Source of the DNA: Escherichia coli
GTDB taxonomy: Bacteria > Pseudomonadota > Gammaproteobacteria > Enterobacterales > Enterobacteriaceae
Length of the DNA: 64,000 nt
Direction: 5' to 3' (one strand)
NCBI RefSeq assembly: GCF_016903815.1
Contig: NZ_CP069974.1
A model generated the notes under the pieces. That model was not told the DNA's origin. It was given only the letters and a program-made list of their open reading frames with translations, and did no database searches. The position numbers were made by a program, and so were the translations under genes. This document shows positions 518 through 36,997 of this stretch, piece after piece. Position 1 is the stretch's first letter. Each line of letters begins with the position of its first letter.

Positions 518-536
518 CAGTGTTTGTCTTCCTGTA

Positions 537-3810: not shown

Positions 3811-4765
3811 TTAACAAGTTGTTTGGGTGTTCGAATTTCAACAGGTAAGTTAGTTGCTAGAACCCATGGCTCCTTTGCCGACGCTGAGTAGATTTTAGGT
3901 GACGGGTGGTGACAATGAGTCCGTGTCGAGCGCTGATTTTTTCGGCCTTTAGAGCGAGATTTATACAATAGAATTTGGCATGAGATTGGATTGCTTTTAG
4001 TCAGCCTCTTATAGCCTAAAGTCTTTGAGTGACTAGATGACATATCATGTAAGTTGCTGATAGGTTTCCAGTTTTCCGCTCCTAGGTCTGCATATTGTAC
4101 TTTTCCTCTTACTCGACTTAACCAGTACCAACCCAGCTTCTCAACGGATTTATACCATGGCACTTTAAAGCCAGCATCACTGACAATGAGCGGTGTGGTG
4201 TTACTCGGTAGAATGCTCGCAAGGTCGGCTAGAAATTGGTCATGAGCTTTCTTTGAACATTGCTCTGAAAGCGGGAACGCTTTCTCATAAAGAGTAACAG
4301 AACGACCGTGTAGTGCGACTGAAGCTCGCAATACCATAAGTCGTTTTTGCTCACGAATATCAGACCAGTCAACAAGTACAATGGGCATCGTATTGCCCGA
4401 ACAGATAAAGCTAGCATGCCAACGGTATACAGCGAGTCGCTCTTTGTGGAGGTGACGATTACCTAACAATCGGTCGATTCGTTTGATGTTATGTTTTGTT
4501 CTCGCTTTGGTTGGCAGGTTACGGCCAAGTTCGGTAAGAGTGAGAGTTTTACAGTCAAGTAATGCGTGGCAAGCCAACGTTAAGCTGTTGAGTCGTTTTA
4601 AGTGTAATTCGGGGCAGAATTGGTAAAGAGAGTCGTGTAAAATATCGAGTTCGCACATCTTGTTGTCTGATTATTGATTTTTCGCGAAACCATTTGATCA
4701 TATGACAAGATGTGTATCCACCTTAACTTAATGATTTTTACCAAAATCATTAGGGGATTCATCAG
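3811..4765 (-). mobile_element. Truncated IS10 (outside end plus 5' 955 bp), cut by IS26
   Basis: IS10 outside end CTGATGAATCCCCTAATGATTTTGGTAAAAATCATTAAG on minus strand ending at 4765; Tnp N-terminus MCELDILHDSLYQFCPELHLKRLNSLTLACH... (ORF 3792..4658). Confidence 0.8.
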
Positions 4766-5837
4766 AGCATGATATCAAAACGCTCTGAGCTGCTCGTTCG
4801 GCTATGGCGTAGGCCTAGTCCGTAGGCAGGACTTTTCAAGTCTCGGAAGGTTTCTTCAATCTGCATTCGCTTCGAATAGATATTAACAAGTTGTTTGGGT
4901 GTTCGAATTTCAACAGGTAAGTTAGTTGCTAGAACCCATGGCTCCTTTGCCGACGCTGAGTAGATTTTAGGTGACGGGTGGTGACAATGAGTCCGTGTCG
5001 AGCGCTGATTTTTTCGGCCTTTAGAGCGAGATTTATACAATAGAATTTGGCATGAGATTGGATTGCTTTTAGTCAGCCTCTTATAGCCTAAAGTCTTTGA
5101 GTGACTAGATGACATATCATGTAAGTTGCTGATAGGTTTCCAGTTTTCCGCTCCTAGGTCTGCATATTGTACTTTTCCTCTTACTCGACTTAACCAGTAC
5201 CAACCCAGCTTCTCAACGGATTTATACCATGGCACTTTAAAGCCAGCATCACTGACAATGAGCGGTGTGGTGTTACTCGGTAGAATGCTCGCAAGGTCGG
5301 CTAGAAATTGGTCATGAGCTTTCTTTGAACATTGCTCTGAAAGCGGGAACGCTTTCTCATAAAGAGTAACAGAACGACCGTGTAGTGCGACTGAAGCTCG
5401 CAATACCATAAGCCGTTTTTGCTCACGGATATCAGACCAGTCAACAAGTACAATGGGCATCGTATTGCCCGAACAGATAAAGCTAGCATGCCAACGGTAT
5501 ACAGCGAGTCGCTCTTTGTGGAGGTGACGATTACCTAACAATCGGTCGATTCGTTTGATGTTATGTTTTGTTCTCGCTTTGGTTGGCAGGTTACGGCCAA
5601 GTTCGGTAAGAGTGAGAGTTTTACAGTCAAGTAATGCGTGGCAAGCCAACGTTAAGCTGTTGAGTCGTTTTAAGTGTAATTCGGGGCAGAATTGGTAAAG
5701 AGAGTCGTGTAAAATATCGAGTTCGCACATCTTGTTGTCTGATTATTGATTTTTCGCGAAACCATTTGATCATATGACAAGATGTGTATCCACCTTAACT
5801 TAATGATTTTTACCAAAATCATTAGGGGATTCATCAG
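4766..5837 (-). mobile_element. Second truncated IS10 copy (5' 1072 bp) in direct tandem with the first
   Basis: Same IS10 end at 5837; Tnp N-terminal 322 aa (ORF 4762..5730); near-identical to 3811..4765 with 1072-bp period. Confidence 0.8.
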
Positions 5838-5872
5838 CGTATAGTGTTTTGCAGTTTAGAGGAGATATCGCG

Positions 5873-6733
5873 ATGCATACGCGGAAGGCAATAACGGAGG
5901 CGCTTCAAAAACTCGGAGTCCAAACCGGTGACCTCTTGATGGTGCATGCCTCACTTAAAGCGATTGGTCCGGTCGAAGGAGGAGCGGAGACGGTCGTTGC
6001 CGCGTTACGCTCCGCGGTTGGGCCGACTGGCACTGTGATGGGATACGCGTCGTGGGACCGATCACCCTACGAGGAGACTCTGAATGGCGCTCGGCTGGAT
6101 GACGAAGCCCGCCGTACCTGGCTGCCGTTCGATCCCGCAACAGCCGGGACTTACCGTGGGTTCGGCCTGCTGAATCAATTTCTGGTTCAAGCCCCCGGCG
6201 CGCGGCGCAGCGCGCACCCCGATGCATCGATGGTCGCGGTTGGTCCGCTGGCTGAAACGCTGACGGAGCCTCACGAACTCGGTCACGCCTTGGGGGAAGG
6301 ATCGCCCGTCGAGCGGTTCGTTCGCCTTGGCGGGAAGGCCCTGCTGTTGGGTGCGCCGCTAAACTCCGTTACCGCATTGCACTACGCCGAGGCGGTTGCC
6401 GATATCCCCAACAAACGGTGGGTGACGTATGAGATGCCGATGCTTGGAAGAGACGGTGAAGTCGCCTGGAAAACGGCATCGGATTACGATTCAAACGGCA
6501 TTCTCGATTGCTTTGCTATCGAAGGAAAGCCGGATGCGGTTGAAACTATAGCAAATGCTTACGTGAAGCTCGGTCGCCATCGAGAAGGTGTCGTGGGCTT
6601 TGCTCAGTGCTACCTGTTCGACGCGCAGGACATCGTGACGTTCGGCGTCACCTATCTTGAGAAGCATTTCGGAACCACTCCGATCGTGCCTCCGCACGAG
6701 GCCGTCGAGCGCTCTTGCGAGCCTTCAGGTTAG
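5873..6733 (+). CDS. aac(3)-II: Aminoglycoside 3-N-acetyltransferase AAC(3)-II (gentamicin/tobramycin resistance)
   Basis: 286-aa product MHTRKAITEALQKLGVQTGDLLMVHASLKAIGPVEGG... matches recalled AAC(3)-IIa/IId family; RBS GAGGAG 9 nt upstream. ORF-track start 5849 is an upstream extension. Allele (IIa/IId/IIe) not resolvable by eye. Confidence 0.9.
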   Translation: MHTRKAITEALQKLGVQTGDLLMVHASLKAIGPVEGGAETVVAALRSAVGPTGTVMGYASWDRSPYEETLNGARLDDEARRTWLPFDPATAGTYRGFGLLNQFLVQAPGARRSAHPDASMVAVGPLAETLTEPHELGHALGEGSPVERFVRLGGKALLLGAPLNSVTALHYAEAVADIPNKRWVTYEMPMLGRDGEVAWKTASDYDSNGILDCFAIEGKPDAVETIANAYVKLGRHREGVVGFAQCYLFDAQDIVTFGVTYLEKHFGTTPIVPPHEAVERSCEPSG

Positions 6734-6745
6734 AGGCCGTCGACA

Positions 6746-7288
6746 ATGATAATCTGGATCAACGGACCTTTCGGCGCCGGAAAGACGACGCTCGCTAAGC
6801 GGCTGCGCGATCGGCGTTCCAAATCGCTGATCTTTGACCCCGAGGAAATCGGGTTCGTGGTGAAAGAAACGGTCCCCATGCCAGCGAGCGGAGACTATCA
6901 GGATCTCCCCTTGTGGAGGGGACTTACGATCGCGGCGGTCAGGGAGATTCGAAGGAATTACTCGCAGGACATCATCATCCCAATGACGCTCGTGCACCCG
7001 GACTATCTGACTGAGATACTCGACGGGGTAAGGCGGATCGACGATCAGCTGCTGCACATCTTTCTGACGCTCAACGAGGACCTATTGCGTCACCGGATCG
7101 CGAACCAGACCATGCATCCTGACCCGAATCGAAATGCGGAGATTCGAGAGTGGCGATTAGCGAATGTCGCCCGATGCTTGGCCGCAAGGGAACGGCTTCC
7201 ATGCACAACCCGTGTTCTCGATAGTGGTGCACACACCAGCGATGAACTCGCAGCGATGGTGCTCGACGGAATCGATGGGCGCACCTGA
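6746..7288 (+). CDS. tmrB: Tunicamycin resistance protein TmrB-like ATP-binding protein
   Basis: 180-aa ORF with P-loop GPFGAGKTT; the gene classically linked downstream of aac(3)-II. Confidence 0.85.
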   Translation: MIIWINGPFGAGKTTLAKRLRDRRSKSLIFDPEEIGFVVKETVPMPASGDYQDLPLWRGLTIAAVREIRRNYSQDIIIPMTLVHPDYLTEILDGVRRIDDQLLHIFLTLNEDLLRHRIANQTMHPDPNRNAEIREWRLANVARCLAARERLPCTTRVLDSGAHTSDELAAMVLDGIDGRT

Positions 7289-7381
7289 TCGCCTTCGACG
7301 CCTGCGCAAAGCGTAGCGCGAGGGTGGCGGGCTCACGACCAAACGCCCAGAGGTCGATCATCGCAGGGATGTTTGGCTTTG

Positions 7382-7680
7382 TGGTGCGGACGACGGGACT
7401 CGAACCCGTACTCTCACAGAGAAGCAGATTTTCGTACCACCTCGACTTTCGCCGCCGTCTGATGACGTTCGTGGTCTGGACTGTCCCTTCGCCATTGCCC
7501 GAAGGCTTTAGGCGCCGCCCGTCCAGTCTCTACACCTTCCCCCGAAGGGGCTTGGCTCGGGATTGGCTTAGGGTATTGCCCGTTAGCGTTCCCCGACTTT
7601 GAGCGGTTCTACTCCGCGGATTTCCCCGCGGGCACTCCAATTTTAAAGTCTGCTGCGTCTACCGATTTCGCCACGTCCGC
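7382..7680 (-). tRNA. tRNA-Leu(UAA) gene interrupted in the anticodon loop by a ~213-nt group I intron
   Basis: Minus strand: 5' exon GCGGACGTGGCGAAATCGGTAGACGCAGCAGACTT (acceptor, class II D arm, anticodon stem, C32-U34); 3' exon AAAATCTGCTTCTCTGTGAGAGTACGGGTTCGAGTCCCGTCGTCCGCACCA (rest of loop, long variable arm, T arm GGTTCGAGTCC, acceptor exactly complementary to GCGGACG, encoded CCA). Exons roughly 7680..7646 and 7432..7382. Confidence 0.7.
7433..7645 (-). ncRNA. Group I intron (tRNA anticodon-loop type, resembling the small cyanobacterial/Azoarcus tRNA introns)
   Basis: Follows exon U34, ends in G; contains core-like segments CCGAGCCAAGC...GAAGGTGTAGAGACTGGACGG...CCTAAAGC resembling the recalled Azoarcus tRNA-Ile intron; no ORF. 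Boundaries +/- 2 nt. Confidence 0.6.
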
Positions 7681-8262
7681 CTTTTTTCGCCGTTCCTAGC
7701 GCTCGTGCGATGCACCTATGTTGCACCTAGCGCCGAATCGTTCTTCGTCATCCTGAAAAACCACGTCTCCTAAAGCCTTGCATAGCTTATCTTTTCTCCA
7801 CCACGAACTTTTTTGTGGGATGGTAGAAAAAAAGACTTTTTAAGTCCGCTGGCTTGCCAGGCCTTGTTAGCTTGTACGGTCATGGTTATCGGGTAAAGAA
7901 TATTGACGGCATCGCTGGTGTCGGTGGCTGAAAAGCCGGCTCCCATCAGGGCAATAGCCATTTCAGATGCAGGCGTACAGGGCAATGGTCAACAGCTACA
8001 GCCTGTCTGACGATTCCGGCGTCATGGCTGCGGCGGCTATCACGCATTTTTTGTTCGGTCAGGCGGTGTTTTCGTACCTCAATGGTTGGAGCGTGTTGAT
8101 CGGACCTGGTACAGGTTTGGACAGCACGGGCTGCAAATACGCAAGGGATTTAATGGGCCTGGTGGCGTTCACGGCTTTTATCGTGACGTTTCTGTTCAGG
8201 GGCTACTCATAATCTCGTGGCTCGGCGGTTCCCGGCACACCATGACAGTAAGGAAGGACCCT

Positions 8263-9390
8263 GTGTCTCAACTCTCCCAGCTTCGAAGCCCCGCCGCCGT
8301 GCAGGCTGCCATCGATGAGTTCGTGCAACTGGGCCGCACGAAATTCCTGGCGCGCCACGGCTACGGCAAGTCCCGCGACTTCCTGGTACGTGATCCGAAG
8401 ACCGGCACCGATTGCGATTCCAAGGCCATCGCCGGTGTGGCCTTCGGCAAGCAATTTCCCGAGCAGGGCCCGCTCACTGCTGACAGCTTCTCCGGTGGCG
8501 AGGCGACCGTCGTTCCGGCGCTGACGCGGCTCGGGTTTCGCATCATTCGCATCGGCGAAGACTGGTCCGAAGAAGAGGTCCTGGCCACGGTCGAAGACTA
8601 TTTCGACATGCTGCGTGCCGAGGCGGCTGGGGAGCCGTACAACAAGTCCGAGCACAACCAGGCACTGCGCCAACTGCTGAACGGTCGCAGCAAGTCTTCA
8701 GTCGAGCTCAAGCACCAGAACATTAGCGCCGTACTCGATGCCCTGGGCCTGCCCTATATCAACGGCTACAAGCCACGCGGCAACAGCCAACTGCTGCTGC
8801 GTAAATCCGTACACGCCTACGTTCTGGAACATCAGCAGACGGTCGGCGCTCTTGTCGATGCCCTGGAGGAGGTAAAACTTCCGGGTGACAAAACCTACCG
8901 AGCGGCTTTGGTAGAACCACCCGCCCGTGAAGTGCTTGTGCGTACCCCGGCATCTCTACGGCAACGCCTACCGCGAAAGTTCGATTATGCCGCTCGCGAT
9001 GAAGCCAACCGCAAGCTGGGCCGGGCAGGGGAGCAGTGGGTGATTGGCTACGAACAGCAACGCCTGACCGAGCTCGGCCACCCAGAGCTTTTTCAGCGGC
9101 TGGATTGGGTGTCCGACACCCAGGGAGACGGTGCGGGGTTCGACATCCTGTCGTTCGAAGAGGACGCCCATGAGCGCTTCATCGAGGTGAAAACCACCAA
9201 TGGCGGGGTAGGCTCGTCTTTCTTGGTCAGCCACAACGAACTCGAATTCTCCAAGGAGGCGGGCGATCAATTCCATCTGTATCGCGTGTTCCAGTTTCGG
9301 GACGGTCCGCGCCTGTTCACGCTACCCGGCGACCTCAGCCAACATGTGCATCTCAAGCCGACGGGCACTGTTGCAAATAGTCGGTGGTGA
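8263..9390 (+). CDS. DUF3883-type protein with PD-(D/E)xK-like C-terminal nuclease fold; 3' end fused into IS26
   Basis: ORF in frame of track ORF 8086..9390; likely start GTG 8263 (RBS AGGAAGG at 8251) or ATG 8242. C-terminal GFDILSFEEDAHERFIEVKTT...LYRVFQF recalled as DUF3883; last ~9 codons derive from the IS26 inverted repeat. Confidence 0.6.
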   Translation: MSQLSQLRSPAAVQAAIDEFVQLGRTKFLARHGYGKSRDFLVRDPKTGTDCDSKAIAGVAFGKQFPEQGPLTADSFSGGEATVVPALTRLGFRIIRIGEDWSEEEVLATVEDYFDMLRAEAAGEPYNKSEHNQALRQLLNGRSKSSVELKHQNISAVLDALGLPYINGYKPRGNSQLLLRKSVHAYVLEHQQTVGALVDALEEVKLPGDKTYRAALVEPPAREVLVRTPASLRQRLPRKFDYAARDEANRKLGRAGEQWVIGYEQQRLTELGHPELFQRLDWVSDTQGDGAGFDILSFEEDAHERFIEVKTTNGGVGSSFLVSHNELEFSKEAGDQFHLYRVFQFRDGPRLFTLPGDLSQHVHLKPTGTVANSRW

Positions 9391-10183
9391 TAAACTTATC
9401 ATCCCCTTTTGCTGATGGAGCTGCACATGAACCCATTCAAAGGCCGGCATTTTCAGCGTGACATCATTCTGTGGGCCGTACGCTGGTACTGCAAATACGG
9501 CATCAGTTACCGTGAGCTGCAGGAGATGCTGGCTGAACGCGGAGTGAATGTCGATCACTCCACGATTTACCGCTGGGTTCAGCGTTATGCGCCTGAAATG
9601 GAAAAACGGCTGCGCTGGTACTGGCGTAACCCTTCCGATCTTTGCCCGTGGCACATGGATGAAACCTACGTGAAGGTCAATGGCCGCTGGGCGTATCTGT
9701 ACCGGGCCGTCGACAGCCGGGGCCGCACTGTCGATTTTTATCTCTCCTCCCGTCGTAACAGCAAAGCTGCATACCGGTTTCTGGGTAAAATCCTCAACAA
9801 CGTGAAGAAGTGGCAGATCCCACGATTCATCAACACGGATAAAGCGCCCGCCTATGGTCGCGCGCTTGCTCTGCTCAAACGCGAAGGCCGGTGCCCGTCT
9901 GACGTTGAACACCGACAGATTAAGTACCGGAACAACGTGATTGAATGCGATCATGGCAAACTGAAACGGATAATCAACGCCACGCTGGGATTTAAATCCA
10001 TGAAGACGGCTTACGCCACCATCAAAGGTATTGAGGTGATGCGTGCACTACGCAAAGGCCAGGCCTCAGCATTTTATTATGGTGATCCCCTGGGCGAAAT
10101 GCGCCTGGTAAGCAGAGTTTTTGAAATGTAAGGCCTTTGAATAAGACAAAAGGCTGCCTCATCGCTAACTTTGCAACAGTGCC
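9364..10183 (+). mobile_element. IS26 copy 2, direct orientation relative to copy 1
   Basis: IRs at 9364-9377 and 10170-10183; tnpA ORF 9409..10131 identical to copy 1. Confidence 0.95.
9409..10131 (+). CDS. tnpA: IS26 transposase Tnp26 (copy 2)
   Basis: Identical 240-aa ORF. Confidence 0.95.
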   Translation: MLMELHMNPFKGRHFQRDIILWAVRWYCKYGISYRELQEMLAERGVNVDHSTIYRWVQRYAPEMEKRLRWYWRNPSDLCPWHMDETYVKVNGRWAYLYRAVDSRGRTVDFYLSSRRNSKAAYRFLGKILNNVKKWQIPRFINTDKAPAYGRALALLKREGRCPSDVEHRQIKYRNNVIECDHGKLKRIINATLGFKSMKTAYATIKGIEVMRALRKGQASAFYYGDPLGEMRLVSRVFEM

Positions 10184-12918
10184 CTTTTTTCTGCCTCATA
10201 CGACGCACGGGAAACCAGCAGACCTGTGCCATAGCCTTTTGCCACATCCACATACAGTAAGTCACCGCGTTTTATCTGCGCATTGATTTCCCCTCCCAGT
10301 TCAGTAAAACCGGTTCCTTCTGCAGCAAACGACTTCGCCTCTGTCAGCAGGTCCACCATGCTGAAGGCCAGGTTTTTACTTTCCAGCACAGGAAGGGCCA
10401 GATGAATGGCCTGCTGTGCCGGCGTGTGAAGCCCGGCTTTCTGCAGACTGATAGCGGTTTCCAGCAATGTCTCACCGGCACGCGCCTTTATCTGATCAGA
10501 AACCACCGTAAAGGAGGGATGGCGGGCAAGTTTTTCCGCAGTACGGGGTTCATCCAGCGAGGAATACAGCCGGACATCACGACCACTGCGGGCCAGACCG
10601 TTCAGGGTCGCGTTGTCCATCGCCATCTGTGTGACGGAGGCAAAAACCGTCGCACTGTCGCTGACGGAATGCCCGGGCGTTTCCACCCAGCCGTTCTCCA
10701 GCTTCAGTGCCGTGAATGGTGAATCAGCCACAGGCAGGGTGGCCGGTTCAGCCCGCCCCGGCACAACAACCGTCATCGCATCTTCACTGACGGATGCCAC
10801 CTGCAGGCGGTCACCGCCGGAGACGCGGAGTCCGGGAATTTTCCCTGTCACCCTCAGTCGCTCGCCGTCTGCCACCGGCATTTTTTCCGGCCGGAACAGC
10901 GACCAGCTGCTGTCCAGGGAGGAAATACGCACCACCTGCGTTTCGCCCTGCGCATCCCGCAGGTTCAGGCTGTGACTCTGCGCTGTCACCCGGTCTATCA
11001 CATAGCGGTCATGACTGCGTGTCTCCGGGTTCCACTGCTCCATCACCATCCCCGGTCGGTACATATCCCGCAGATAACGGCTCCGGCTGTCCAGCCAGAC
11101 CGGTGACAGTGCAGTCATGGTCACCTCAGGGTGTCCGAGCACGCCCTGCGTTTTCAGCTCACTGCGAATGGCCTCTGTCAGTATGGCCTGTTCCCGTACC
11201 CCGCTGACCTGTGCCACGCTCTCTTCTCCGGCTTTCACGCTGGCCGCAAAATCTCCGGCCAGCCGGGCATAGCGGACATTACGGTCCGGTTCACTGATGA
11301 TGGTGGCCGGTCGCTGTTCTCCCCCCTGCCAGCGATATGTGTTCACCCCGGCATCCTTCATGGCCATCAGTGCACTGCCTGTACCGGTTCGCTGCCCGCT
11401 GTCGGTTATCAGGACCTGTACGTTATGACGTGCGGCACCATCCAGCAGGGTTAACGTCTCTTTCAGGGAGAGTTTTTCGCCCTGGTCGACGATAACGGTA
11501 CTGCCCGGCGGGAAGGCCATGCCTTCCAGCAACTGACGACGTCCGGTTATCAGTTCACCGGACAGCCGTTCATCCTGCTTCAGGTTCATCTGCGAGCGAC
11601 GGTCAGCAGCGATAATCTGCACCTCCCGCCCCTGCTCCCGGGCCATCATGACCAGTTCAGCCACCCGCTCACGCTGCCCGGCTGCACCGCCCTGCCCGGA
11701 CACAATGGCCAGCGACGGGCGATCCTGTGCCAGAACACTGACGGCATCGCTGTAACCGGCCGTCCGGGGGACACTTTTCTCCGGATGTACGGTCACCCGG
11801 TTCTGTTTCATGATGTCACGACTGAGTGCCCGGACTGACAGCTCATCGAGCACATGAATCCCGGACGTGAACAGCCCCTTCTCACGATCGAGGGGGATAA
11901 GCTGCTCACGGCTGATGGCCTCATCGATACCGGCGCGTGCCCGTTCAATCACACCATTTTCCGGCGGCAGTATGCCGACCGTCCTGGCCAGCACGTCCGT
12001 ATACGTGAACTGCACTTTTCGTTCACTTAATCCGGCAATGGCCTGTGTCACCGCCTGCTGCACATCCGGCCCGTCCTGTGAAGCAGGCCCGGGCGCCTGC
12101 GTGCGGATCTCCGCACGCTGATCCGCCGCGTCACGATATGCCCGGATGTCGAACCCGGTTTCCTTCAGCGTCTGCATCCATTCAGCCATTCTGACTTCAG
12201 GATCGACGTGCTGTTTGGATTTACGCGTATCCAGTGCCGCCACATCCCGGGATTTCAGCGAGGCGTCTTCACCGACGGCCTCCCGGATAGCCTGTGAGCG
12301 TCCGGAGAAGGCTTCCACCGGTACGCCCGGCATCTCCCACATACCGTGCTTACCGACCACTTCGGTTTCATAACCCAGCGCCTCAACGCGCTGACGTAAC
12401 TCACTCTGATATATTTTCCCGAACGCAATCCGGTTCGCGAGCACGTTCTCGGAAAATCCGGTTTTCCCCACTTTGTCACTGCTCAGTGTCTTCCATTCGC
12501 CGTTATGCTGCGTGACATTAGCCACCACCACATGCGTGTGTAACTGTGGGTCCTGATCGCGACTGGTGTCATGGTTAAACAGTGCCATCACCAGATTACC
12601 GGTCAGCACCGTTTCTGACTGTCCGTCCGTCATCACCCGTGTGGAAGCCAGCGCCTCCACCTGACGGACAGCAAAATCCACAGCCTGGTTATGTGCATCA
12701 ATAAGACGTTTATCCCCCCCGAGCATGGCCATCATGGAGACACTTTTGGGGGCGGAGAAGGTCAGGTCGTAGCCGGGACGATGCTTATTACTGCCATCCT
12801 GCATGCGGCTTAAATCCGCCCCGTCCGGCAGCCTGCCCTCCAGAAGACGGGTAAAAACATCCTTATCGACGCTGCCCTGCAGCCCAAGCTGTTCAGCCCC
12901 CTGAACGGAAAAAAGCAC
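10184..12918 (-). pseudogene. traI: traI 5' fragment (relaxase domain), lacking the first ~37 codons and severed by IS26
   Basis: 917-aa ORF matches F TraI from ...[27 protein letters not shown]... to ...SYEAEK; recalled N-terminus MMSIAQVRSAGSAGNYYTDKDNYY (catalytic tyrosines) is absent. Confidence 0.9.
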
Positions 12919-13072
12919 GGGTGTTCATGACGTCAAACAGCGTGGCCGCCGCTTTCTCACCGTAGATATCTTCCAGCTGGGCATAGGACTGGATACCAAA
13001 CACATAACAGCCACCGAACTTACGGGCTTCCGGCAGGATCTCCACCAGGTCCGGCAGTTTGTGTAACGTGGG
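12919..13072 (-). pseudogene. traD: traD internal remnant (coupling protein fragment)
   Basis: Minus-strand translation ...[52 protein letters not shown], a recalled F TraD segment, wedged between traU and traI remnants. Confidence 0.6.
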
Positions 13073-13238
13073 TACCCTGGCTGACTTTGATACTGCCCAG
13101 CGAGAGCGGGAAAATACAGCTCCAGCAGATATCCGTGATCGGGTTTACAAAACGCCCCTCACAGGCAGAATCCGCAGACGCCGCAGGGACATGACCGGCG
13201 AGAAGGAATAACATCAGCAGCCACAGTCTTCGCTTCAT
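13073..13238 (-). pseudogene. traU: traU 5' remnant (first ~55 codons)
   Basis: [55 protein letters not shown] then frame leaves TraU. Confidence 0.7.
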
Positions 13239-13561
13239 TTTCTGCCCTCCTCTGCCGGAATAAATTCCACCTTCAGGAAGCGATCGCCGGGAACGGCGCT
13301 CACCCGTGCCGGGACCTGATCAATGCCGAGGCGCTGGCAGAGCACACCGTTCTGGTCAAAGTAAATACGGCTGTCCAGCGCTTTCTGCATCTCCGGGATA
13401 CTGCCCTGCACGAGGATAATTTTGCTCTCCAGTGTGGGCGGCGTCTGGCGTTTCATCCAGGCCACCTGCGCCGGATCATCGCCATTGATGAAATACAGCG
13501 TCTGGTTAAAAGGAACATACTGCAGCGGATTCATCACTTCACCCTGACGGGCAAACACCCG
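13235..13561 (-). pseudogene. traW: traW 3' remnant (C-terminal ~108 codons)
   Basis: ...FARQGEVMNPLQYVPFNQTLYFINGDDPAQVAWMKRQTPPTLESKIILVQGSIPEMQKALDSRIYFDQNGVLCQRLGIDQVPARVSAVPGDRFLKVEFIPAEEGRK; N-terminal part and trbI missing. Confidence 0.7.
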
Positions 13562-13568
13562 CCCTTCG

Positions 13569-15896
13569 TTATCCCGGATACAGCTGGTTGTATTTTGCGA
13601 ACTCCTTCGCACTCTGTTTGAGGATAATTTTGTAGGAGGAGTTACCCCATGCCGCACGGGCCGCACTGGAGGCCTTGTCAGAGTCAAAGTCGACGATGTT
13701 CTGTGTGATGGTGATATAAGCACCGGTATGACGACGGGCGGTACGGTAACCTTTCTCAATAAACTCACCGACCTTGTAATTTTTGAAGTCCAGCAGACGC
13801 CAGCCTTCATCAATGACGTTCAGTTTCTTGAGGTTACGCGGCGTGCGGTACATCCTGTTCTCGATGTAGATAATCAGGGAGAACATCACCGCAACCAGCA
13901 GTGACGGACGGTCTTCCAGTCCGCCCAGCTCCAGCACCACCATTTTTGCGTCATCCCGCAGGGACGGCTCATCAGAGTTAAAATACTGACCGTAAGTGCC
14001 GTTGGCAGTGTACTGGTCAAGCAGCACAATCATTTCGTCCAGACGGCTGCGGATAGTCGGTGACCCGGCATACTGCTCGCTGTCACTGGCGTTTTTCAGG
14101 AAATCCACCACGTCATCAATACGTGCCCTGTTCTCTTTGGCCAGCCAGGAGGCCCTGACCGCCTGCAGCAGCAGACCTTCATGCACTTCATCCAGGTTAC
14201 CGTTGGGGCTGGCCATCACTGACAACTGGTCACGGACACGCTCCGCTGACTGGTCGATATCGGTGATATTCGCAAACGGGTTAAAACGCAGGGTTTCACC
14301 GTCCAGATATACGCCACCCATGTTCTCACACAGGGACTTGTAGCCATCCCCCATGTCGAACACCACGGCAAAGCCCCCGGAGTCCAGCACGCTGCGGATA
14401 AGGGGCTGTATCAGTCCGGTTTTACCGGCCCCGGAGGTGCCACAGACCGCCATGTTGTAGTTGGTGTTATTCATCCCCCGGAAGAAAATATCGATAAACG
14501 CCAGCTGGTTACGGTAGGTGGGTGCCAGCAGACCTGCCGGTGTCAGGGGGTTATCCGCCACTAACGGCATCAGGTTGGCAACATTAAAGCTCTCTGCGCG
14601 CTGAACCACACCGGCCTCTTTCAGCTGTTTAAACAGCCCTTTCCCGGCCATAAAGGGCAGGCAGGTCAGGAAATTGCGCATGTGGTTAAAGCGCGGTGAA
14701 ATCAGCTCAAAACCGTTTTTACGGAAGCTGTTCAGGATGTCCTGCTCCACTTCCAGTGCCGTTTCATTATTGTCCTTGCAGAAGGCTGTGATGTTGAGGA
14801 AGTAGGACACGACAGAAGACTGACCGGAGCCCAGCCGCTGACGCAGTTCCCCCCACTCCTTCGCCTCTTTCTCCACGGACGGAAACCATTTGGCATAGGA
14901 GGTCTTCGACTTTTTCTCCAGGTCCATGTACTTCAGGTTGGCTTCGCTGTGGGTTTTCACCTGGTCTTCCACCACCAGAGTCAGCGTCAGGATGAACGGA
15001 CAGGAGATGGACAGTTCCGGGTTCAGCAGGTTGCTGTAGTTGTCGGCCATATTCCACAGGAAGGCGATTTCCGGGTTACGGGCCAGATGGAAATTCAGGA
15101 TGCGGGCCGTGCTGTTCCTGCCGTTCTCACGCAGGCCCAGCGTCAGGTAATCAGCCCGGACTTTCAGGTCAAAACTGTCCTCCACACACTGATAATTCAG
15201 ATCAGAATACGGGTCCAGCTGACGTCTTTTCGGGTACAGGGAGTCCGGGTTATGATTAATCATCTCCCCGACAATATCGATAAAGGCCTGTGCATCCACC
15301 GTCTGTGTGGCGATACTGGCCCCCTGTAACGACGCCCGGATGATTTTCACCAGGTTTTCCATTTCCAGAATGTCAGCCCGGCTTTTTTTCTTCGAGGGAG
15401 AACAGTACGAGAAGAATACCCGGTAATGGCGCAGGGTCAGGGGCAGATTCATCCCCTCCGGCAGCGGAAACTGTGTCGCTGCCGCGTTCATATAATAGGC
15501 ACGGGTAATGGCGTTAAACCGTTCAGCCTGTTCACCGGACCAGGAGAACTCACGCAGCCCGTATTCAATTCTGTCACCAACAAGCTGGCTGGACTTCAGA
15601 TGGATGCAGAACGGCACTCCGCGTGGCAGTTTGGTGCGCAGCATGTGGTCGAGCGCCTCCACAATGGACTCATTCGCCCCATTGATGGGAATGGCTTCCA
15701 GCATAAAGCCCATCGTGGTGTCATTCATGAACAGACCGGACTCCTGGTTGTAATCACGGTACGGCAGCAGACGGCTGAACTGCGGGAAGCTCATTTCGCC
15801 CAGAACTTCATTGGCCTTTGCGGATTCGTCAGGCAGTTTCAGTGCTGTGACGAGGGAGTTAACCGCCTGAGTGACGGCCTCAAGTGGGTTATTCAC
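13569..15896 (-). CDS. traC: TraC (VirB4-like type IV secretion ATPase), C-terminally shortened (775 aa vs ~875 in F)
   Basis: Starts MNNPLEAVTQAVNSLVTALKLPDE...; ends ...KEFAKYNQLYPG at a deletion junction with traW. Confidence 0.85.
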   Translation of the reverse strand: MNNPLEAVTQAVNSLVTALKLPDESAKANEVLGEMSFPQFSRLLPYRDYNQESGLFMNDTTMGFMLEAIPINGANESIVEALDHMLRTKLPRGVPFCIHLKSSQLVGDRIEYGLREFSWSGEQAERFNAITRAYYMNAAATQFPLPEGMNLPLTLRHYRVFFSYCSPSKKKSRADILEMENLVKIIRASLQGASIATQTVDAQAFIDIVGEMINHNPDSLYPKRRQLDPYSDLNYQCVEDSFDLKVRADYLTLGLRENGRNSTARILNFHLARNPEIAFLWNMADNYSNLLNPELSISCPFILTLTLVVEDQVKTHSEANLKYMDLEKKSKTSYAKWFPSVEKEAKEWGELRQRLGSGQSSVVSYFLNITAFCKDNNETALEVEQDILNSFRKNGFELISPRFNHMRNFLTCLPFMAGKGLFKQLKEAGVVQRAESFNVANLMPLVADNPLTPAGLLAPTYRNQLAFIDIFFRGMNNTNYNMAVCGTSGAGKTGLIQPLIRSVLDSGGFAVVFDMGDGYKSLCENMGGVYLDGETLRFNPFANITDIDQSAERVRDQLSVMASPNGNLDEVHEGLLLQAVRASWLAKENRARIDDVVDFLKNASDSEQYAGSPTIRSRLDEMIVLLDQYTANGTYGQYFNSDEPSLRDDAKMVVLELGGLEDRPSLLVAVMFSLIIYIENRMYRTPRNLKKLNVIDEGWRLLDFKNYKVGEFIEKGYRTARRHTGAYITITQNIVDFDSDKASSAARAAWGNSSYKIILKQSAKEFAKYNQLYPG

Positions 15897-16055
15897 ATGA
15901 ATTCCTTAGTTGAAAAATAAAGCGAGAAATGCGGTAGCCATGAAGGGAATACCTGTAATTAACGCGCCATTTCCCGGCGCATATACAAAGATTTCGGTTT
16001 TCTGAATATCAACTCATGTTCATCCGGAATTAAATCAATATGTTCTGCGACTGAC

Positions 16056-16277
16056 TTATGCATAATGTTTTCTCTGCTTTTCCTGATACGCCTGACATTC
16101 AACGCACAACGTCACACCGGGAAATATTTTCCGCCGGGCTTCCGGAATAGGATTTCCGCATGCTTCACAGAGATAAACAGGAATACCATGAACATTTATT
16201 TTCTGGCGTATCCGGTTTATTCCTGTCATGGTCAGTTGTTCTGTCACTGAATATGCTTCATCGGCTTCATCACTCAC
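16056..16277 (-). CDS. traR: TraR (DksA-like zinc finger protein)
   Basis: 73 aa with CEACGNPIPEARRK...CVECQ zinc finger; position between traV and traC as in F. Confidence 0.85.
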   Translation of the reverse strand: MSDEADEAYSVTEQLTMTGINRIRQKINVHGIPVYLCEACGNPIPEARRKIFPGVTLCVECQAYQEKQRKHYA

Positions 16278-16411
16278 GGAATATTCCTCCCGACATGTTC
16301 TGACACGCTACCGCCCATCCCTTTTCACGCACAGGGCACTCGTTTTACAGGCAGATTTTGAATACAGAAAGCCCGCCGGCATTGCCGGCTGATATACAAC
16401 TTCAGGGCCAG

Positions 16412-16927
16412 TTAATTAATACGTGGTTTTCCCCACGCAGACGGTTTAATAACAAAAAACACACTGGATGGCTGATGATAAACATCCTGATTATCAATAT
16501 AAGGCGCTATCCATAATGCAGCCGTCTGCTCACCCGTTCTTAGCGGGCGGGGAGGTGTTACCGGCGCAACTGAACTGACCGGAACAATCGTTTTCACTTC
16601 CCGGGCAGCCGTAAACAACGGACGTGGTGCCAGCAGTTTCTGCTCCGGAAGTGCCGTCACCGCAGGTCTGCTGCCGGACGGAGGGGTCGCGGTGACGGTC
16701 TGCACCGGCATTGTCCGGAAGTTCCCTTCAGCCAGGCGCGGCAGTGATGCCGCAACCGGCTTTGCTTCTGAGGACTGCTCCAGTTCTTTGGCCTTCTCAT
16801 TGGCCTGCTCCATCGTCATACAGGTATCGGATGTGGTGGCGTTACACTCAAATTCCGTACTGGTTCCGGCACAGCCGGAAAGTAATAACGTTCCCAGCAG
16901 AGGAATAAATAAAGAAATCTGTTTCAT
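16412..16927 (-). CDS. traV: TraV lipoprotein (pilus assembly)
   Basis: 171 aa, lipoprotein signal ...LLLSGCAG. Confidence 0.85.
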   Translation of the reverse strand: MKQISLFIPLLGTLLLSGCAGTSTEFECNATTSDTCMTMEQANEKAKELEQSSEAKPVAASLPRLAEGNFRTMPVQTVTATPPSGSRPAVTALPEQKLLAPRPLFTAAREVKTIVPVSSVAPVTPPRPLRTGEQTAALWIAPYIDNQDVYHQPSSVFFVIKPSAWGKPRIN

Positions 16928-17238
16928 TACCCTTCTCCTTTTTTATTACTCTCCACAACAGCAGAAATTAACTCTACTGTCAGATTTGTTTTTCCTGCAC
17001 AGGGTTGTCCGGAGACTACTGTATTTCCCGGAGAAGAAAATAAGCTCATCGACATACCCTTCTTCATCACACCGACAGCTGCCATATTAAAATTGTGCGG
17101 CAATGATTCAGAACCGAATTCCTTCAGTGCAGGAAGTACGATTCTTGTGGTGCAGTTACTGAGAACAGCATTCATAAAATCATCTGATACGCTTTTATCC
17201 GGTACAGAGCGTGCAGTAATAATATTACGCATGTTCAT
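16927..17238 (-). CDS. TrbG/TrbD-region small protein
   Basis: ORF between traP and traV, synteny with F trbD-trbG; exact assignment not verified. Confidence 0.4.
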   Translation of the reverse strand: MNMRNIITARSVPDKSVSDDFMNAVLSNCTTRIVLPALKEFGSESLPHNFNMAAVGVMKKGMSMSLFSSPGNTVVSGQPCAGKTNLTVELISAVVESNKKGEG

Positions 17239-17812
17239 TTTTATCTCCGTTGTTTCTGTTTGCCCTGTCATCAGGGAAATAAACATGGCATTTCCTGATT
17301 TTTTCCGACAGAGAAGTATCTTCCGTATAAACTTCCTTCAGATGTTCATCTGCGGTTCCCACCCGGACACATTTCATTTTTCCGGGTCGCACCGGATATT
17401 TCCCGGTGATCGCTGCCAGCGAGACATACATCAGTGCCAGTGTTGCCCAGAATGCGGTGACCAGTTGCATCAGTGACCGGTCAGTCTCCCTGACATAATC
17501 TGCAGCATCAGCCGCGCGGTAATGGCAGATATCCTGTATTTCTGATCTGCCTGAAGAATCAGAGGAAGAAAACCAGCATTCACTGACCGGGAACTGTCCG
17601 GCAGGTGCTGTTTGTCTTACGAAGTTAATCTCCTTAACCAGTAATTTCCCCGGCGTGGTGTTGTCCTTCCATAAAACAAACAGAGCCATCAGGGCCATTG
17701 TGGCCAGCGGCCAGATAACCACAAACCTGACGACCCACAGCAGCCAGCGAACGACAAACGCCACACGGAATGTCAGTGCATCACCCGCCATTTCCGCCCT
17801 CCTTGCCGGCAT
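17225..17812 (-). CDS. traP: TraP
   Basis: 195-aa membrane protein in the expected F position. Confidence 0.7.
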   Translation of the reverse strand: MPARRAEMAGDALTFRVAFVVRWLLWVVRFVVIWPLATMALMALFVLWKDNTTPGKLLVKEINFVRQTAPAGQFPVSECWFSSSDSSGRSEIQDICHYRAADAADYVRETDRSLMQLVTAFWATLALMYVSLAAITGKYPVRPGKMKCVRVGTADEHLKEVYTEDTSLSEKIRKCHVYFPDDRANRNNGDKNEHA

Positions 17813-19232
17813 CCCCGCCCTGCGGGTTCTTGTCTCCGGACATAAACTGCTGCGGATTCAGATTGCCCAGCTGCTTCAGCATCTGGTCGGTGTTAAAACC
17901 GTTCAGGTGGCTTTCTGCCGAGGGAGGATTCGGCACAGGGCTTTCCGGGTTACCCTCTTCCGCTGTACTCTGTGACTGCTCCAGCGCCATTTCCTCCACG
18001 GTTTTCAGCTGGAAGCCGTCCTGGAACACCACTGTCACTTCGTTGCCCGCACCAATCGGTATCACCGGGTGATACTGTTCGGCACGTTTGATGTAGTAGT
18101 CACTGAGCGTCTGTGCGGCTTTCGATGCGCCGCCACCGATACCCATTTTAAGGACATCGCCGGCCCCGTAAGCGGCTGTGGCACCCAGCCCGACAGCCGG
18201 CTGGGAGGCGCGCTCCATTCCCTGACCGATACCGTCAACAAATCCCGCGCCCCATGCCCAGCCGAGGATTTTGCCGTTACGCATCACCACTTCGCCCTTG
18301 ATACCGTTTTTACCCCGGAAGCTGACATGCCCCTTAATCGGCATATCAATGGTTTTGCCATTCTTCAGGCAGCTGATATTACGGGTGCGAACAATAGCAC
18401 GTTCACTGGAGACATCCCCCCAGGCTTCCAGCCCCACAAAACATCCCGTTGCGTCATACGTCTTGCTGTTCGGCATTTCCACCAGACCGGTGATACGCAG
18501 CTGCATCGGCACCGTGGATTCATTACCGGTGACTGAGGCATTGGCATCCGCCCCTTCAATCAGCATGGCTTTCGCAAAACTTCCTGACGGAATGTACGGC
18601 AGCGATGGTCCCTGTTTTCCCTCATTACGGGTAAACACCTTACGCTGTATCCGGTTAGGCACCGGCACAGACTGGTACATCACCTGTGGTGGTGGCGTGA
18701 CACCATTCCCGGGATAAAACGCCGTCGGCGGTGGAACAGCAACGCTGCCCTGCGGCGGGAAGGATACGGGGGTGTTTCCCGGCTGTGGTTCGCCTTCCGG
18801 CCCGGGCGGTGAGGCTGGCGTCTGCGGTACAGGCTCACCGGTCGCCGTGACGGGATTAGCACCCAGGGCTTTTACCTGCTCTGCCAGGGCGGCATTGTCC
18901 TGTCCCAGTTTTTCAATACGACGCTGGTCATCACCGCGCTGTTTGTTCAGGACATCCAGTTCACGACGGATTTCCTCATACTGCTTCTGCATCTGCGCTG
19001 CCGTCACCTGCATCTCTGTGGTGGCATGCTGACGCACCTTGTCATCAAAGGTCGTATCCACCACACCGGTCATATCCGGCACAGGCTCCTGTTCAGCCAC
19101 GGTTTCCCCGTTACCGGACATGTCCACATCAGACAGATACAGTGCCCCACCAATCGCGGAGGCTGTACCGACAACCACAATCCCCAGCCACAGGTACTGC
19201 TTGCGTTTCACAATGGTGTTGATACTGGCCAT
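17781..19232 (-). CDS. traB: TraB (VirB10-like)
   Basis: 483 aa, N-terminal TM, proline-rich linker; synteny. Confidence 0.85.
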   Translation of the reverse strand: MASINTIVKRKQYLWLGIVVVGTASAIGGALYLSDVDMSGNGETVAEQEPVPDMTGVVDTTFDDKVRQHATTEMQVTAAQMQKQYEEIRRELDVLNKQRGDDQRRIEKLGQDNAALAEQVKALGANPVTATGEPVPQTPASPPGPEGEPQPGNTPVSFPPQGSVAVPPPTAFYPGNGVTPPPQVMYQSVPVPNRIQRKVFTRNEGKQGPSLPYIPSGSFAKAMLIEGADANASVTGNESTVPMQLRITGLVEMPNSKTYDATGCFVGLEAWGDVSSERAIVRTRNISCLKNGKTIDMPIKGHVSFRGKNGIKGEVVMRNGKILGWAWGAGFVDGIGQGMERASQPAVGLGATAAYGAGDVLKMGIGGGASKAAQTLSDYYIKRAEQYHPVIPIGAGNEVTVVFQDGFQLKTVEEMALEQSQSTAEEGNPESPVPNPPSAESHLNGFNTDQMLKQLGNLNPQQFMSGDKNPQGGDAGKEGGNGG

Positions 19233-19960
19233 CAGTTGCCCTCCCCGTCACGGATGACATACACATCCATGCACGCACCTGCCAGTAACTGGCTGGCAGG
19301 CTGGCTGAACATCACGGCACGGGTTCCCGGCTGCCAGAAGTCACTTTCCCGGATATTCAGGGCAGACAGCGTTTTATTTTCCACGGCAAAGCGGACCATC
19401 TTCAGGTGATTCCCCGTCCATACGGCATCTGCCACTGAAGACAGCCCCGCCGGGGCCTGCAGGGTTTCCTTTGTCACAGGAACCTGATACCAGCCTGCAG
19501 GTAATTTTCCGCCACGGACAGCCTGGCTGATGGTCACAAGCAGGGATTCGTAAGGCGTGGACGTTTCCCACGCACCGGCTTCTTCTCCGGTTCCGCGCAG
19601 GTCACTGACCAGCTGAATGGTACGCCCCGCGCCTTCACGGGGAACGGCCTGAATGGAAAGATTCAGACCACGTTCTGTTTCCAGAATGAACGTAAAGGGC
19701 TTTTTGTTGACGGTGGCAACCACCACACCGCCGGAGGCGGTCTGCTCATTATTGGTCAGGGCACCATCCAGACTGTTCACGGCGATAATCCGGTCACCGG
19801 GAACGGTAAACAGATTCGGGCTGGTATTGCTGATGGCAATACTGGCCTGACCACCGTTCACCATTGGCACCACGGTGGGGGACAGCGTACCGTTTGCGGC
19901 CATCACGCTGCAGGAAAAAAACAGGCTGCCGAATATTATTGCCGTATTATTTTTTCTCAT
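19232..19960 (-). CDS. traK: TraK (secretin-like)
   Basis: 242 aa with signal peptide; synteny. Confidence 0.85.
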
Positions 19961-20513
19961 CGTCTGTTTCCCCGAAATTATCCAGCCAGGTCACCCCGTT
20001 TTCCCGCTTCAGAATAAGGATGTAATGTTTGATATCAGTGAAAGGTTTTGAATCACCAATCCAGGTTTTAAGCACACCACGAATTTCCACACGGCCATAC
20101 TGAGGCCAGACACGAACACTGGTCTGGAAAAAGGCTGAGTTCACGTTATCGTTTTTAATACGCTTCGCTTCTTCAGCCAGAATAACTTTCATCTGGTTCT
20201 GTGCGCCCGGGCGGATATATTTCAGAAGCGCCTGATGTGAGGCATCGACGGTTTCTGATGAAACATTCAGACGGAGGGCAATAAATGACAGCGCCATCTG
20301 CTGTAAATAAGAGGCGTCGGCACTGTTCTGTGACACGGCAAAGGGGGCATTAAATGCCATTGGCGTCACGGCAGTGCGTTGCTCATTCTGAAGACGGTAG
20401 TTATTCACCCCCTGAATGACGTTAACAGAGAGGCTGAGAACAATAAGCACTGACATAAATATAAAGGCGATGGCCATTACACGACTGGTACTTAAACGGG
20501 CACCGTGTTCCAT
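19947..20513 (-). CDS. traE: TraE
   Basis: 188 aa, N-terminal TM; synteny. Confidence 0.85.
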
Positions 20514-20534
20514 ATAACAATCCTGGTATCAGTT

Positions 20535-20846
20535 CTATTTAACCCACTGCCGGAAACACGAATCGGGAACATTATGAAAAATACCGCGCAGCAGGGCTGT
20601 TGGCATATACCAGTAAATCAGGTCTCGTAACCAGGAACTGCCCCGCCCTTTTTTCAGTTTTTTAATCCCGAAATAAACCAGAACCGCTGCACCAATACCG
20701 AACAGATATTTTGATGTTGTGATACCCCAGCCAATACAGATTGCGGCGGGGATCAGTTCATCCAGTGGCAGGCCAAACCAGCGGCTCTGGTTGGTCAGTG
20801 TTTCCGGGAAACGATATTTCTTAAGTTTATTCTCGTCTCCCGACAT
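20535..20846 (-). CDS. traL: TraL
   Basis: Small membrane protein; synteny. Confidence 0.8.
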
Positions 20847-20850
20847 CGTT

Positions 20851-21213
20851 TTATTTCAGGCCAACGACGGCCATACCCACAGCAATAAATACAGAGATGA
20901 TGGCAAAACCGGCCAGGAACTTGACGTTTTTGGTCATCATGTACATGACCGCACCGACCAGAACTTCAGCCAGAACAACCCATTTAACAACACTGGAGTC
21001 CTTACCGAAGGTCGCCTTAACCGTGGTGTTACCGCTTGCCATCAGGTCCTGGCCCTGTGCTGCCATTGCCAGTTGCGGGAAGAACATCATCAGAACAGCA
21101 GCAGGGATCACAGCGCGAGCCAGGCGAAGCATATTCAGACGAGTGAATTTAGAAAAAAACGATTTCTTTTTGACGGGCGCAGAAGCACCCTGAACACTTA
21201 AAAAGGCGTCCAT
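20851..21213 (-). CDS. traA: TraA propilin (F-pilin precursor)
   Basis: 120 aa ...[86 protein letters not shown], classic F-type pilin. Confidence 0.9.
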
Positions 21214-21246
21214 ATGATTCCTCTGTTTAATATTGATAGATAAAAA

Positions 21247-21474
21247 CTAAAGTTCTTTAAATGTTGACTCGTTCTCTTCGATCACCTCCCTGAATATTTC
21301 TTCATTATAGAAATCAGGAAACCGTTTCAGATGATCTCTGAGACGGATCTGAACCTCTATAGTTTTACTTCTACCGCTACGATCTTTGGCCCGAATAAGT
21401 CGGTTATTTGTATCTTCATCGAGATACACTGAGACTGTTCTGCTTATCCCGCCTCTCGCGTTACGCCTCCTCAC
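21247..21474 (-). CDS. traY: TraY (75-aa R100-type ribbon-helix-helix oriT protein)
   Basis: Size and position. Confidence 0.8.
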   Translation of the reverse strand: MRRRNARGGISRTVSVYLDEDTNNRLIRAKDRSGRSKTIEVQIRLRDHLKRFPDFYNEEIFREVIEENESTFKEL

Positions 21475-21561
21475 TCAATTCACCTCTGTTTCCTGACCAA
21501 TAAAATCATGATTGCACAGAAATGGCCTGTCGAAAATGGGCCCAAAACGAGCCCTGCTTTA

Positions 21562-22239: not shown

Positions 22240-22320
22240 CGGCGATTTTTAATATCAAGTTTTAACGTGGCATTAACCACATAATTAATATAACCTTTAT
22301 GCGGTTAATTGTCATCAAAT
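22235..22320 (+). ncRNA. finP: Probable finP antisense RNA region (complementary to traJ leader)
   Basis: Position only (traM-traJ intergenic, opposite strand); not checked by structure. Confidence 0.3.
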
Positions 22321-22372
22321 TGAACCAGATCAAAATCCTGTTATTTGAAGCAAATCAACTTTTAATTCTTTT

Positions 22373-22756: not shown

Positions 22757-22759
22757 ATG

Positions 22760-23100: not shown

Positions 23101-23179
23101 GGTGAGAACCACCAACCTGTTGAGCCTTTTTGTGGAGTGGGTTAAATTATTTACGGATAAAGTCACCAGAGGTGGAAAA

Positions 23180-33500: not shown

Positions 33501-36997
<3,497 letters not shown>

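Follow-up and report, generated by a model that had tools for sequence, protein, structure and literature searches.

How does a conjugative plasmid come to lose most of its transfer (tra) genes, and are the end points of the deletions that remove them left to chance? The question is raised by a stretch of Escherichia coli DNA of 64,000 nucleotides (the window; contig NZ_CP069974.1 of assembly GCF_016903815.1), in which the tra region of an F-like plasmid carries a scar where remnants of traC, traW, traU, traD and traI have been joined by three deletions. Two of the three joints, those that end in traU and in traC, lie at recurrent, nucleotide-exact upstream deletion boundaries that are found in many unrelated F-like plasmids. 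What is it that fixes one end of such a deletion, and what does the scar mean for the plasmid that carries it?

The anatomy of the scar is given by a blastn comparison of window positions 1-26000 with the intact tra region of a relative that is typed as conjugative (NZ_CP029580.1, positions 108000-150000, referred to as L003). The tra genes of the window are all on the minus strand and fall into five blocks, collinear with L003 at 99.9-100% identity (Table 1). All three deletions are packed into window positions 12903-13580, and the two islands that separate them, one from traD and one that spans the traW-traU boundary, keep their original order and orientation. Junction 1, between traC and traW, marks the loss of 972 bp containing the traC 3' end, trbI and the 5' half of traW. 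Junction 2, between traU and traD, replaces L003 12838-29148, which amounts to 16.3 kb in L003 or about 14.3 kb when its IS1/ISKpn26 insertion is discounted, and Junction 3 marks the loss of 884 bp from the 3' part of traD and the 5' end of traI. On the coding strand the retained traC sequence runs to ...AACCAGCTGTA at codon 774 (hot spot 'g') and the retained traU sequence to ...AAAGTCAGCCAGGGTA at codon 55/56 (hot spot 'e'). Translations of the open reading frames agree with this mapping, in that TraU runs for 55 codons before the frame is lost and TraI resumes at ...GAEQLGLQ. The initial annotation, which was made from the letters of the window, had already recognised the joined remnants of the five genes, a TraC lacking its last 100 or so codons (774 of 875 are kept), the first ~55 codons of TraU (codons 1-55) and a TraI that starts at GAEQLGLQ without its catalytic tyrosine region, and in each of these the alignment bears it out. 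It was wrong in describing the TraW remnant as a C-terminal third, as around 55% of the length (115/210 codons) is present; it was right that an internal piece of TraD survives, which has 57 codons rather than ~50; and the span of 12900-13570 that it gave captures the packing of the joints, with the traW/traC joint at 13574-13580 falling just outside.

Is the scar real? An identical 1.7-kb version is present in NZ_CP020496.1, NZ_CP020519.1, NZ_CP103763.1, NZ_CP173527.1 and NZ_CP024863.1, which represent 5 of the 5,426 complete E. coli genomes. As these assemblies are complete, independent and drawn from several studies, the scar is no assembly artefact. Near-identical relatives of the plasmid are of the FII/FIA/FIB replicon type. 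The best explanation of the whole, and one that we hold with considerable confidence, is that the scar is real and vertically inherited in an R100-like IncF multidrug-resistance plasmid of the type associated with sequence type 131 (ST131).

Overlaps of 7 bp, 2 bp and an imperfect 6 bp are present at the three joints, and of 0-7 bp at the related joints described below, as is characteristic of microhomology-mediated illegitimate recombination. Reading of the junction sequences reveals no insertion sequence (IS) in or abutting any of the three, such that tra sequence meets tra sequence directly. This bears on the possibility that the scar was made by adjacent deletions mediated by IS26 or IS1. 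IS26 is abundant on the plasmid, and the copy inside traI is at a distance of 2.7 kb; relatives have IS1 and ISKpn26 within the interval that is deleted here; and published H30Rx plasmids have tra genes truncated by IS26. An adjacent deletion, however, leaves an IS at the joint, and the nearest IS26 end to the scar is at 10183. The IS26-bounded unit within traI is also flanked by an intact 8-bp direct duplication, CTTTTTTC, at 2983-2990 and 10184-10191, and thus represents a simple insertion by transposition into traI, and no similarity to the terminal repeats of IS elements or transposons was found in the fixed arm of the deletions. An IS-mediated origin of the scar is barely credible.

The first hot spot is that in traU. 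TraU residues 1-55 were searched against a collection of 5.8 billion proteins and the DNA of the matching loci was fetched. The matches include 12 distinct clusters of truncated TraU, all of which diverge straight after ...SIKVSQG; one of these products is found on 101 contigs and another, identical to the 72-residue product of the window (cluster P0002), on 52. At the level of the DNA, 13 loci have one invariant upstream arm, ...AAAGTCAG followed by C or T and then CAGGGTA, which is joined to 13 different partners. All but one of these partners map downstream in the tra region of the reference, within traN, trbE, traQ, trbB, traG, traD (three sites), traI, traX (two sites) and the interior of an IS1 that the reference has at that place; the remaining one (L018) is DNA that matches none of the sequences compared. 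The microhomology at these joints is 0-4 nucleotides (TA, GTA, GGTA or none), and the site is used on backbones with either allele of the C/T position, which is 8 nucleotides from the joint. Many of the loci have further deletions upstream, so that a traW-3'/traU-5' island of 0.24-0.5 kb recurs. Around six rearrangement joints at other positions in traU are found among the same matches, and in a control search with TraW residues 1-55 the truncation points are scattered with no dominant position. Among records from the complete E. coli genomes, 32 of 2,762 have a break in a 200-bp segment with the traU site at its centre, as against 24 of 2,761 for the neighbouring segment upstream and 2 of 2,814 for that downstream. 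The site is also used in CP124987.1 (L006), a diverged plasmid from an unrelated study, where traI is joined near the same nucleotide as in the window to a different piece of traD, which is followed by traU at exactly L003 29149.

Two draft contigs (L020 and L021) end at ...GTCAGTCAGGG(T), only 1-2 nucleotides from the traU site, and a 55-residue 'partial TraU' cluster that matches these ends has 42 member sequences. Such ends could reflect mixed populations of intact and deleted plasmids, or a repeat that is joined there.

What of the traC end? Here the window's truncated TraC of 775 residues was used as the query for the protein search. The fixed arm, ...CAGCTGTA, ends at window 13580-13581 (L003 30634). 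At least nine in-frame TraC fusions diverge exactly after ...AKYNQLY, continuing into TraG (three sites), TraN (three sites), TraI and TraD, and one further TraC product ends at that same residue. With the traW joint of the window counted, the traC site has at least 10 different partners. The retained DNA is immediately preceded by TA in 7 of the 8 partner sites that were located in the reference, the eighth (P0106) being in a stretch of traN where the reference allele differs. CP124991.1 (L007), again diverged and from an unrelated study, has traD joined to traC at exactly the nucleotide used in the window, and uses the traC site alone. A contig from Logan SRR27605915 (L013) has at 2930-4166 the window's own traC/traW joint (L003 30628 to 29656) on a backbone that is about 2% diverged, together with another partner at the traU site, and four other tra joints accompany the shared one. 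The presence of this joint in L013 is explained either by its recurrent formation or by its transfer through recombination. A recurrent end point with variable partners, as sought for a hot spot at a nick or arrest site, is thus found in traU with 13 partners and in traC with at least 10.

The downstream arms display some reuse of their own. The 5' breakpoint in traI (window 12901-12908, L003 ~11775-11782) is common to the window and CP124987.1 to within a few nucleotides, with different traD partners, and a second traI site at L003 8227 is common to L006 and L013.

Could all of these loci instead descend from one ancestral scar that spread by homologous recombination among F-like plasmids and was then extended? 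The backbones of these plasmids are mosaic, and the traW-traU island is 98-99% similar between lineages as against 91-97% for the flanking genes. However, to place 13 partners at one nucleotide by this route would need later deletions that each end at the old joint, which is again a site-specific process. Moreover, both the C and the T allele are present next to the joint, and the TraW control has no comparable clustering. Shared descent is highly improbable as the source of the pattern.

A different matter is whether the scar of the window was formed at a single stroke, with all three joints and the 172-bp and 508-bp islands arising in one round of serial template switching, in the manner of microhomology-mediated break-induced replication (MMBIR) or fork stalling and template switching (FoSTeS). 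The islands are collinear and in the same orientation, the microhomologies at the joints are short, and a multi-island pattern is also found in L006, L008, L013, L014 and L015. In addition, neither PLSDB nor the 5,426 E. coli genomes contain a plasmid with joint 2 or joint 3 alone, in a survey where carriers of joint 1 alone would not stand out. Such a lack of intermediates is weak evidence, though, and L013 has joint 1 with a different traU partner, which suggests that the joints are separable; together with the sole use of the traC site in L007 this indicates that joints can form independently. One complex event is a possible account of the window's scar, if one that falls somewhat short of an even chance.

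A clue to the process at the two sites is the form of the joints. One end is nucleotide-exact, the other is variable and promoter-distal wherever it could be placed, most joints (if not all) have 2-4 nucleotides of pairing, and products with several joints, in which short islands remain in order, are frequent, all of which would be expected of a fixed 3' end that re-anneals downstream. On the most likely reading, a 3' end of the coding strand would be recurrently made or protected at two nucleotides, through a site-specific nick, arrest or barrier, and would then be re-joined further downstream via terminal pairing of 0-4 nucleotides. The joints themselves would be formed by microhomology-assisted illegitimate joining, either replication template switching or alternative end-joining, and not by IS26. 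Junctions of this anatomy agree with template switching or alternative end-joining; they do not match what IS activity, random decay or site-specific recombination with a fixed core would leave. Two settings may be envisaged for such a 3' end. Within a recipient, it is the coding-sense strand that is made on the template of the transferred strand, which makes conjugative transfer a candidate setting, and from the direction of IncFII replication it would also be the leading strand in vegetative replication, a further candidate.

The two fixed arms have sequence features in common. Both end in CAG N1-2 GTA, with GGWCC following in the intact gene, and on the plus strand the pattern GGWCC N1-3 TAC N1-2 CTGG is found in 42 kb at these two places only. 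Do these features represent pseudo-sites for nicking or tight binding by a DNA-processing enzyme, such as the relaxase or HUH nickase of a co-resident mobilisable plasmid, or TraI itself, with deletion arising through rolling-circle displacement or protection from exonuclease as at the M13 and pC194 origins? Such an enzyme would account for one end being fixed to the nucleotide and the other variable, and for deletions that are strictly unidirectional. The plus-strand sequence of the two fixed arms opens with 5'-TACCCTGGCTGA and 5'-TACAGCTGGTTG, in both cases after GGWCC, a combination that is unique in the 42 kb. Yet the usual MOBP alignment would put the nick 7-8 nucleotides into the retained arm, neither fixed end is similar to the F or R100 nic site, and the enrichment of terminal TA is easier to reconcile with annealing than with transesterification, even if cleavage 5' of TA would look the same. 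The fixed arms may resemble the nick regions of ColE1 (TATACTGGCTTA) and RP4 (TATCCTG followed by CCCGGCTGAC), a putative likeness for which the position of the nick does not fit. An enzyme pseudo-site is an unlikely, though not negligible, basis for the fixed ends.

A number of other causes for the fixed ends were considered and rejected. Stalling induced by hairpins is not supported, as the DNA at the traU and traC sites folds no better than shuffled sequence. Homing by group II introns finds no support either, as the intron sites, between GGTGCGC and CCGGCAG and, in ssb, between CTCGTAGGA and CGCCTGG, are unrelated to the hot spots; a 12/13 match between an intron and the traU arm sits in a stem and is not significant. 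A type I-E CRISPR (clustered regularly interspaced short palindromic repeats) spacer following the AAG that adjoins the traU site is in no array among the 5,426 E. coli genomes. Chi-directed resection fails for want of a correctly oriented Chi in the sequence as read, Dcm/Vsr nicking because the hot spot is kept in an AGTCAGG allele without CCWGG, and precise excision of an element that targets TA because 3-4 partners are without TA. No description of a deletion hot spot in traU or traC was found in the literature searched.

Several points weigh against the reading of a fixed and re-annealing 3' end and against the wider account of the scar. (i) The motif shared by traU and traC was defined post hoc and is only suggestive. 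(ii) Searches of the fixed ends for a nickase site, a hairpin, Chi, an IS end, an intron target or a CRISPR spacer were all negative. (iii) Sampling in protein databases favours short open reading frames at the traU site and in-frame fusions at the traC site. (iv) The fixed 3' end would be a deduction from the anatomy of junctions. (v) The loss of self-transfer and the potential for mobilisation are predictions drawn purely from gene content. (vi) The check for missing genes covers the 64-kb window and close relatives, and thereby only part of the plasmid's own replicon. (vii) None of the complete RefSeq plasmids has an unbroken match to window 2500-13600, or the IS26 module of the window as a single piece. 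With these points included, the reading of the two sites as deletion hot spots is moderately probable overall. A broader proposal, which we make tentatively and would not put at even, is that F-like plasmids hold at least two nucleotide-exact start points, traC codon 774 and traU codon 55/56 (CAG N1-2 GTA and then GGWCC), for one-way deletion of distal tra genes. A sequence-specific activity, be it a nick, an arrest of replication or of complementary-strand synthesis, or a bound protein, would make or protect the coding-strand 3' end, and microhomology joining would then turn conjugative plasmids into non-transmissible ones that are inherited vertically. If this is true, the loss of conjugation in clinical IncF plasmids would be partly directed and recurrent rather than random decay. 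It would then follow preferred molecular routes, detectable by junction polymerase chain reaction or by k-mers, and a specific enzyme or an intermediate of replication or transfer might drive them.

What has the plasmid lost, and what has it kept? Of the relaxase, the first ~34 residues of TraI are gone, and it is in this N-terminus, which in L003 reads MLSFSVVKSAGSAGNYYTDKDNYYVLGSMGERWAGQ up to GAEQ, that all four of the tyrosines Y16, Y17, Y23 and Y24 reside. A self-transmissible F-type plasmid (MOBF12 / MPF_F) has a relaxase with these N-terminal catalytic tyrosines and the coupling protein TraD; the window has neither, as traD is reduced to 57 codons that are out of frame with their neighbours. 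The genes trbI, trbC, traN, trbE, traF, trbA, traQ, trbB, trbJ, trbF, traH, traG, traS and traT are gone, which confirms the absence, predicted by the initial annotation, of the genes from trbI to traT and of most of traD, in the order that it gave. In the mating-pair-formation set, traA, traL, traE, traK, traB and traV are intact, traC, traW and traU are truncated, and trbC, traN, traF, traH and traG are missing from both the window and a near-identical complete plasmid. Taken together, the deletions and the insertion remove the catalytic N-terminus of the relaxase and the coupling protein TraD, along with at least nine genes that are essential to mating-pair formation. Beyond what had been noticed before, traI is broken a second time by the IS26-bounded transposon; the annotation of an identical plasmid by the Prokaryotic Genome Annotation Pipeline (PGAP) labels the counterpart of window 537..2990 as 'TraI domain-containing, missing N-terminus'. 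No second copy of the deleted tra DNA was found in the 64-kb window or in the near-identical NZ_CP020496.1 (120.7 kb), where only IS1 matches were obtained, and none of the deleted genes is in the annotation of pMB9880_1.

The proximal part of the region tells the opposite story. The retention of oriT and pilus genes had been predicted, and they are kept at 99.98% identity to the plasmid typed as conjugative; oriT, traM, traY and traJ are identical to those of conjugative relatives, and proteins identical to the proximal tra products are annotated in NZ_CP020496.1. The nic consensus by which the oriT of the window was recognised is established knowledge of the F/R100 oriT. The nick pattern is on the plus strand, and the plus strand is thus the transferred strand. 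From this inventory the plasmid would be incapable of its own transfer, as the initial annotation had suggested and as the lost genes, with no replacement in the window, NZ_CP020496.1 or the annotation of pMB9880_1, lead one to expect. It would be mobilisable at best, in trans, by a co-resident F plasmid of R100/R1 type as the source of TraI, of TraD and of the pilus genes that are missing. A non-self-transmissible state is already annotated and is ordinary for IncF resistance plasmids; for the plasmids with the scar, PGAP marks five pseudogenes, namely a truncated traC, TraW, TraU, a type IV secretion system DNA-binding domain protein and traI. The scar would explain why this resistance plasmid is confined to vertical inheritance in cells that have no helper F-type plasmid, which is epidemiologically useful and expected for IncF plasmids of ST131 type.

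Table 1. Features of the scarred tra region and its surroundings, with their counterparts in the intact region L003.
Feature	Window position	Strand	L003 position	Detail
traX 5' part and distal end of traI	1-2993		6076-9068	blastn
TraI C-terminal fragment, distal traI upstream of traX	537..2990	-	6612-9065	99.97% identity
IS26-bounded pseudo-compound transposon inside traI	2991..10183			7.2 kb; IS26 ends GGCACTGTTGCAAA / TTTGCAACAGTGCC read directly
TraI internal fragment	10184..12908	-	9058-11782	~codons 35-942; first 100 nt of traI gone
Junction 3, traD/traI	12903..12908			imperfect 6-bp microhomology; traD codon ~484 to traI codon ~35
TraD internal island	12903..13074	-	12666-12837	172 bp; residues 427-484 of 745; 100% identity
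Junction 2, traU/traD	13073..13074			2-bp TA microhomology; traU codon 55/56 to traD codon ~427
traU 5'/traW 3' island	13073-13580	-	29149-29656	508 bp
traU codons 1-55	13073..13238	-		signal peptide and ~30 residues; out of frame into TraD island
traW C-terminal 115 of 210 codons	13235..13580	-		alignment and translation
Junction 1, traC/traW	13574..13580			7-bp microhomology CCGGATA; traC codon 774 to traW codon ~96
traC codons 1-774 of 875	13574..15896	-		ends ...KYNQLYPG and stop; alignment and translation
traC codons 1-774, traR to traM, oriT and beyond	13574-24947		30628-42001	blastn
Intact traR, traV, trbD, traP, traB, traK, traE, traL, traA, traY, traJ, traM	16054..22754	-		99.98% to L003 over 11.4 kb
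oriT nick region, R100 type	23080..23093	+		GCGTAGTGTGT then GGTGC; exact pattern match
Short motif at traU hot spot				GGTAAGGTCC
Short motif at traC hot spot				CTGTATCCGGACC

The window has other mobile elements besides. By reference to the annotation of related plasmids, the IS26 unit contains two ISVsa5 fragments, aac(3)-IId, an AAA ATPase gene and a gene for a DUF3883/NO VEIN protein. The ISVsa5 (IS10-like) fragments are truncated, near-identical and in tandem at window 3813-5834, and each has a match to the antisense RNA RNA-OUT, at 4651-4720 and 5723-5792. Some 30 bp from the point of insertion of the IS26 unit there is a match to the Rfam AS-traI antisense RNA (window 2882-2958, plus strand, 106 bits). 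In NZ_CP169036.1 the IS26/aac(3)-IId module appears to interrupt traI on a plasmid that retains traD and traG, a hint that the IS26 unit was inserted before the tra deletions took place. The load of group II introns, at four copies, is unusually high for one plasmid. One intron is present three times on the plus strand (25822-28163, 37607-39948 and 43278-45619), at the same GGTGCGC/CCGGCAG site of paralogous leading-region repeats, and a second, at ~34300-36960 on the minus strand, splits the plasmid ssb after codon 13 (between ...ILVG and RLGK...).

How does the scarred plasmid compare with others that have lost parts of tra? It resembles the F2:A1:B- and F1:A2:B20-type plasmids of ST131 in its multireplicon IncF backbone and, in its close relatives, CTX-M-15-type modules. 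In those plasmids, too, tra is incomplete in differing ways and addiction systems are many, and they are experimentally non-conjugative; the F2:A1:B- plasmids of ST131 H30Rx were all found to be non-conjugative with diverse tra defects (bioRxiv 10.1101/2021.08.17.456450). The defects described there are disruptions and truncations associated with IS26/IS15DI, translocation and missing operon starts, whereas the joints of the window are IS-free and have microhomology. A second likeness is to pAPEC-1 and to plasmids of the ColV/ColBM type, where a big internal tra deletion fuses distant tra genes and oriT is kept, and the tra-truncated pAPEC-1 is mobilised only with helper plasmids (PMC2626276). 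pAPEC-1 as described has a single traB-traI deletion (PMC2626276), in contrast to the three joints, two islands and IS26 insertion of the window.

With regard to mechanism, one likeness is to the deletion hot spots of M13, pC194 and terB, which have a defined nucleotide at one end, a varying position at the other, and little or no homology. These hot spots reportedly coincide with the gene II nick of M13, the origin of pC194 and the replication terminator terB. They are defined nick or arrest sites, whereas none of the sequence signatures tested is present at the traU and traC sites, and we know of no initiator, relaxase or terminator protein that acts in either gene. The other likeness is to MMBIR and alternative end-joining, both of which are said to operate in E. 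coli. The junction microhomology of 0-7 nucleotides, the multi-joint products and the short tracts in their original order are all shared with these processes. Neither MMBIR nor alternative end-joining would be expected to reuse one nucleotide in independent events.

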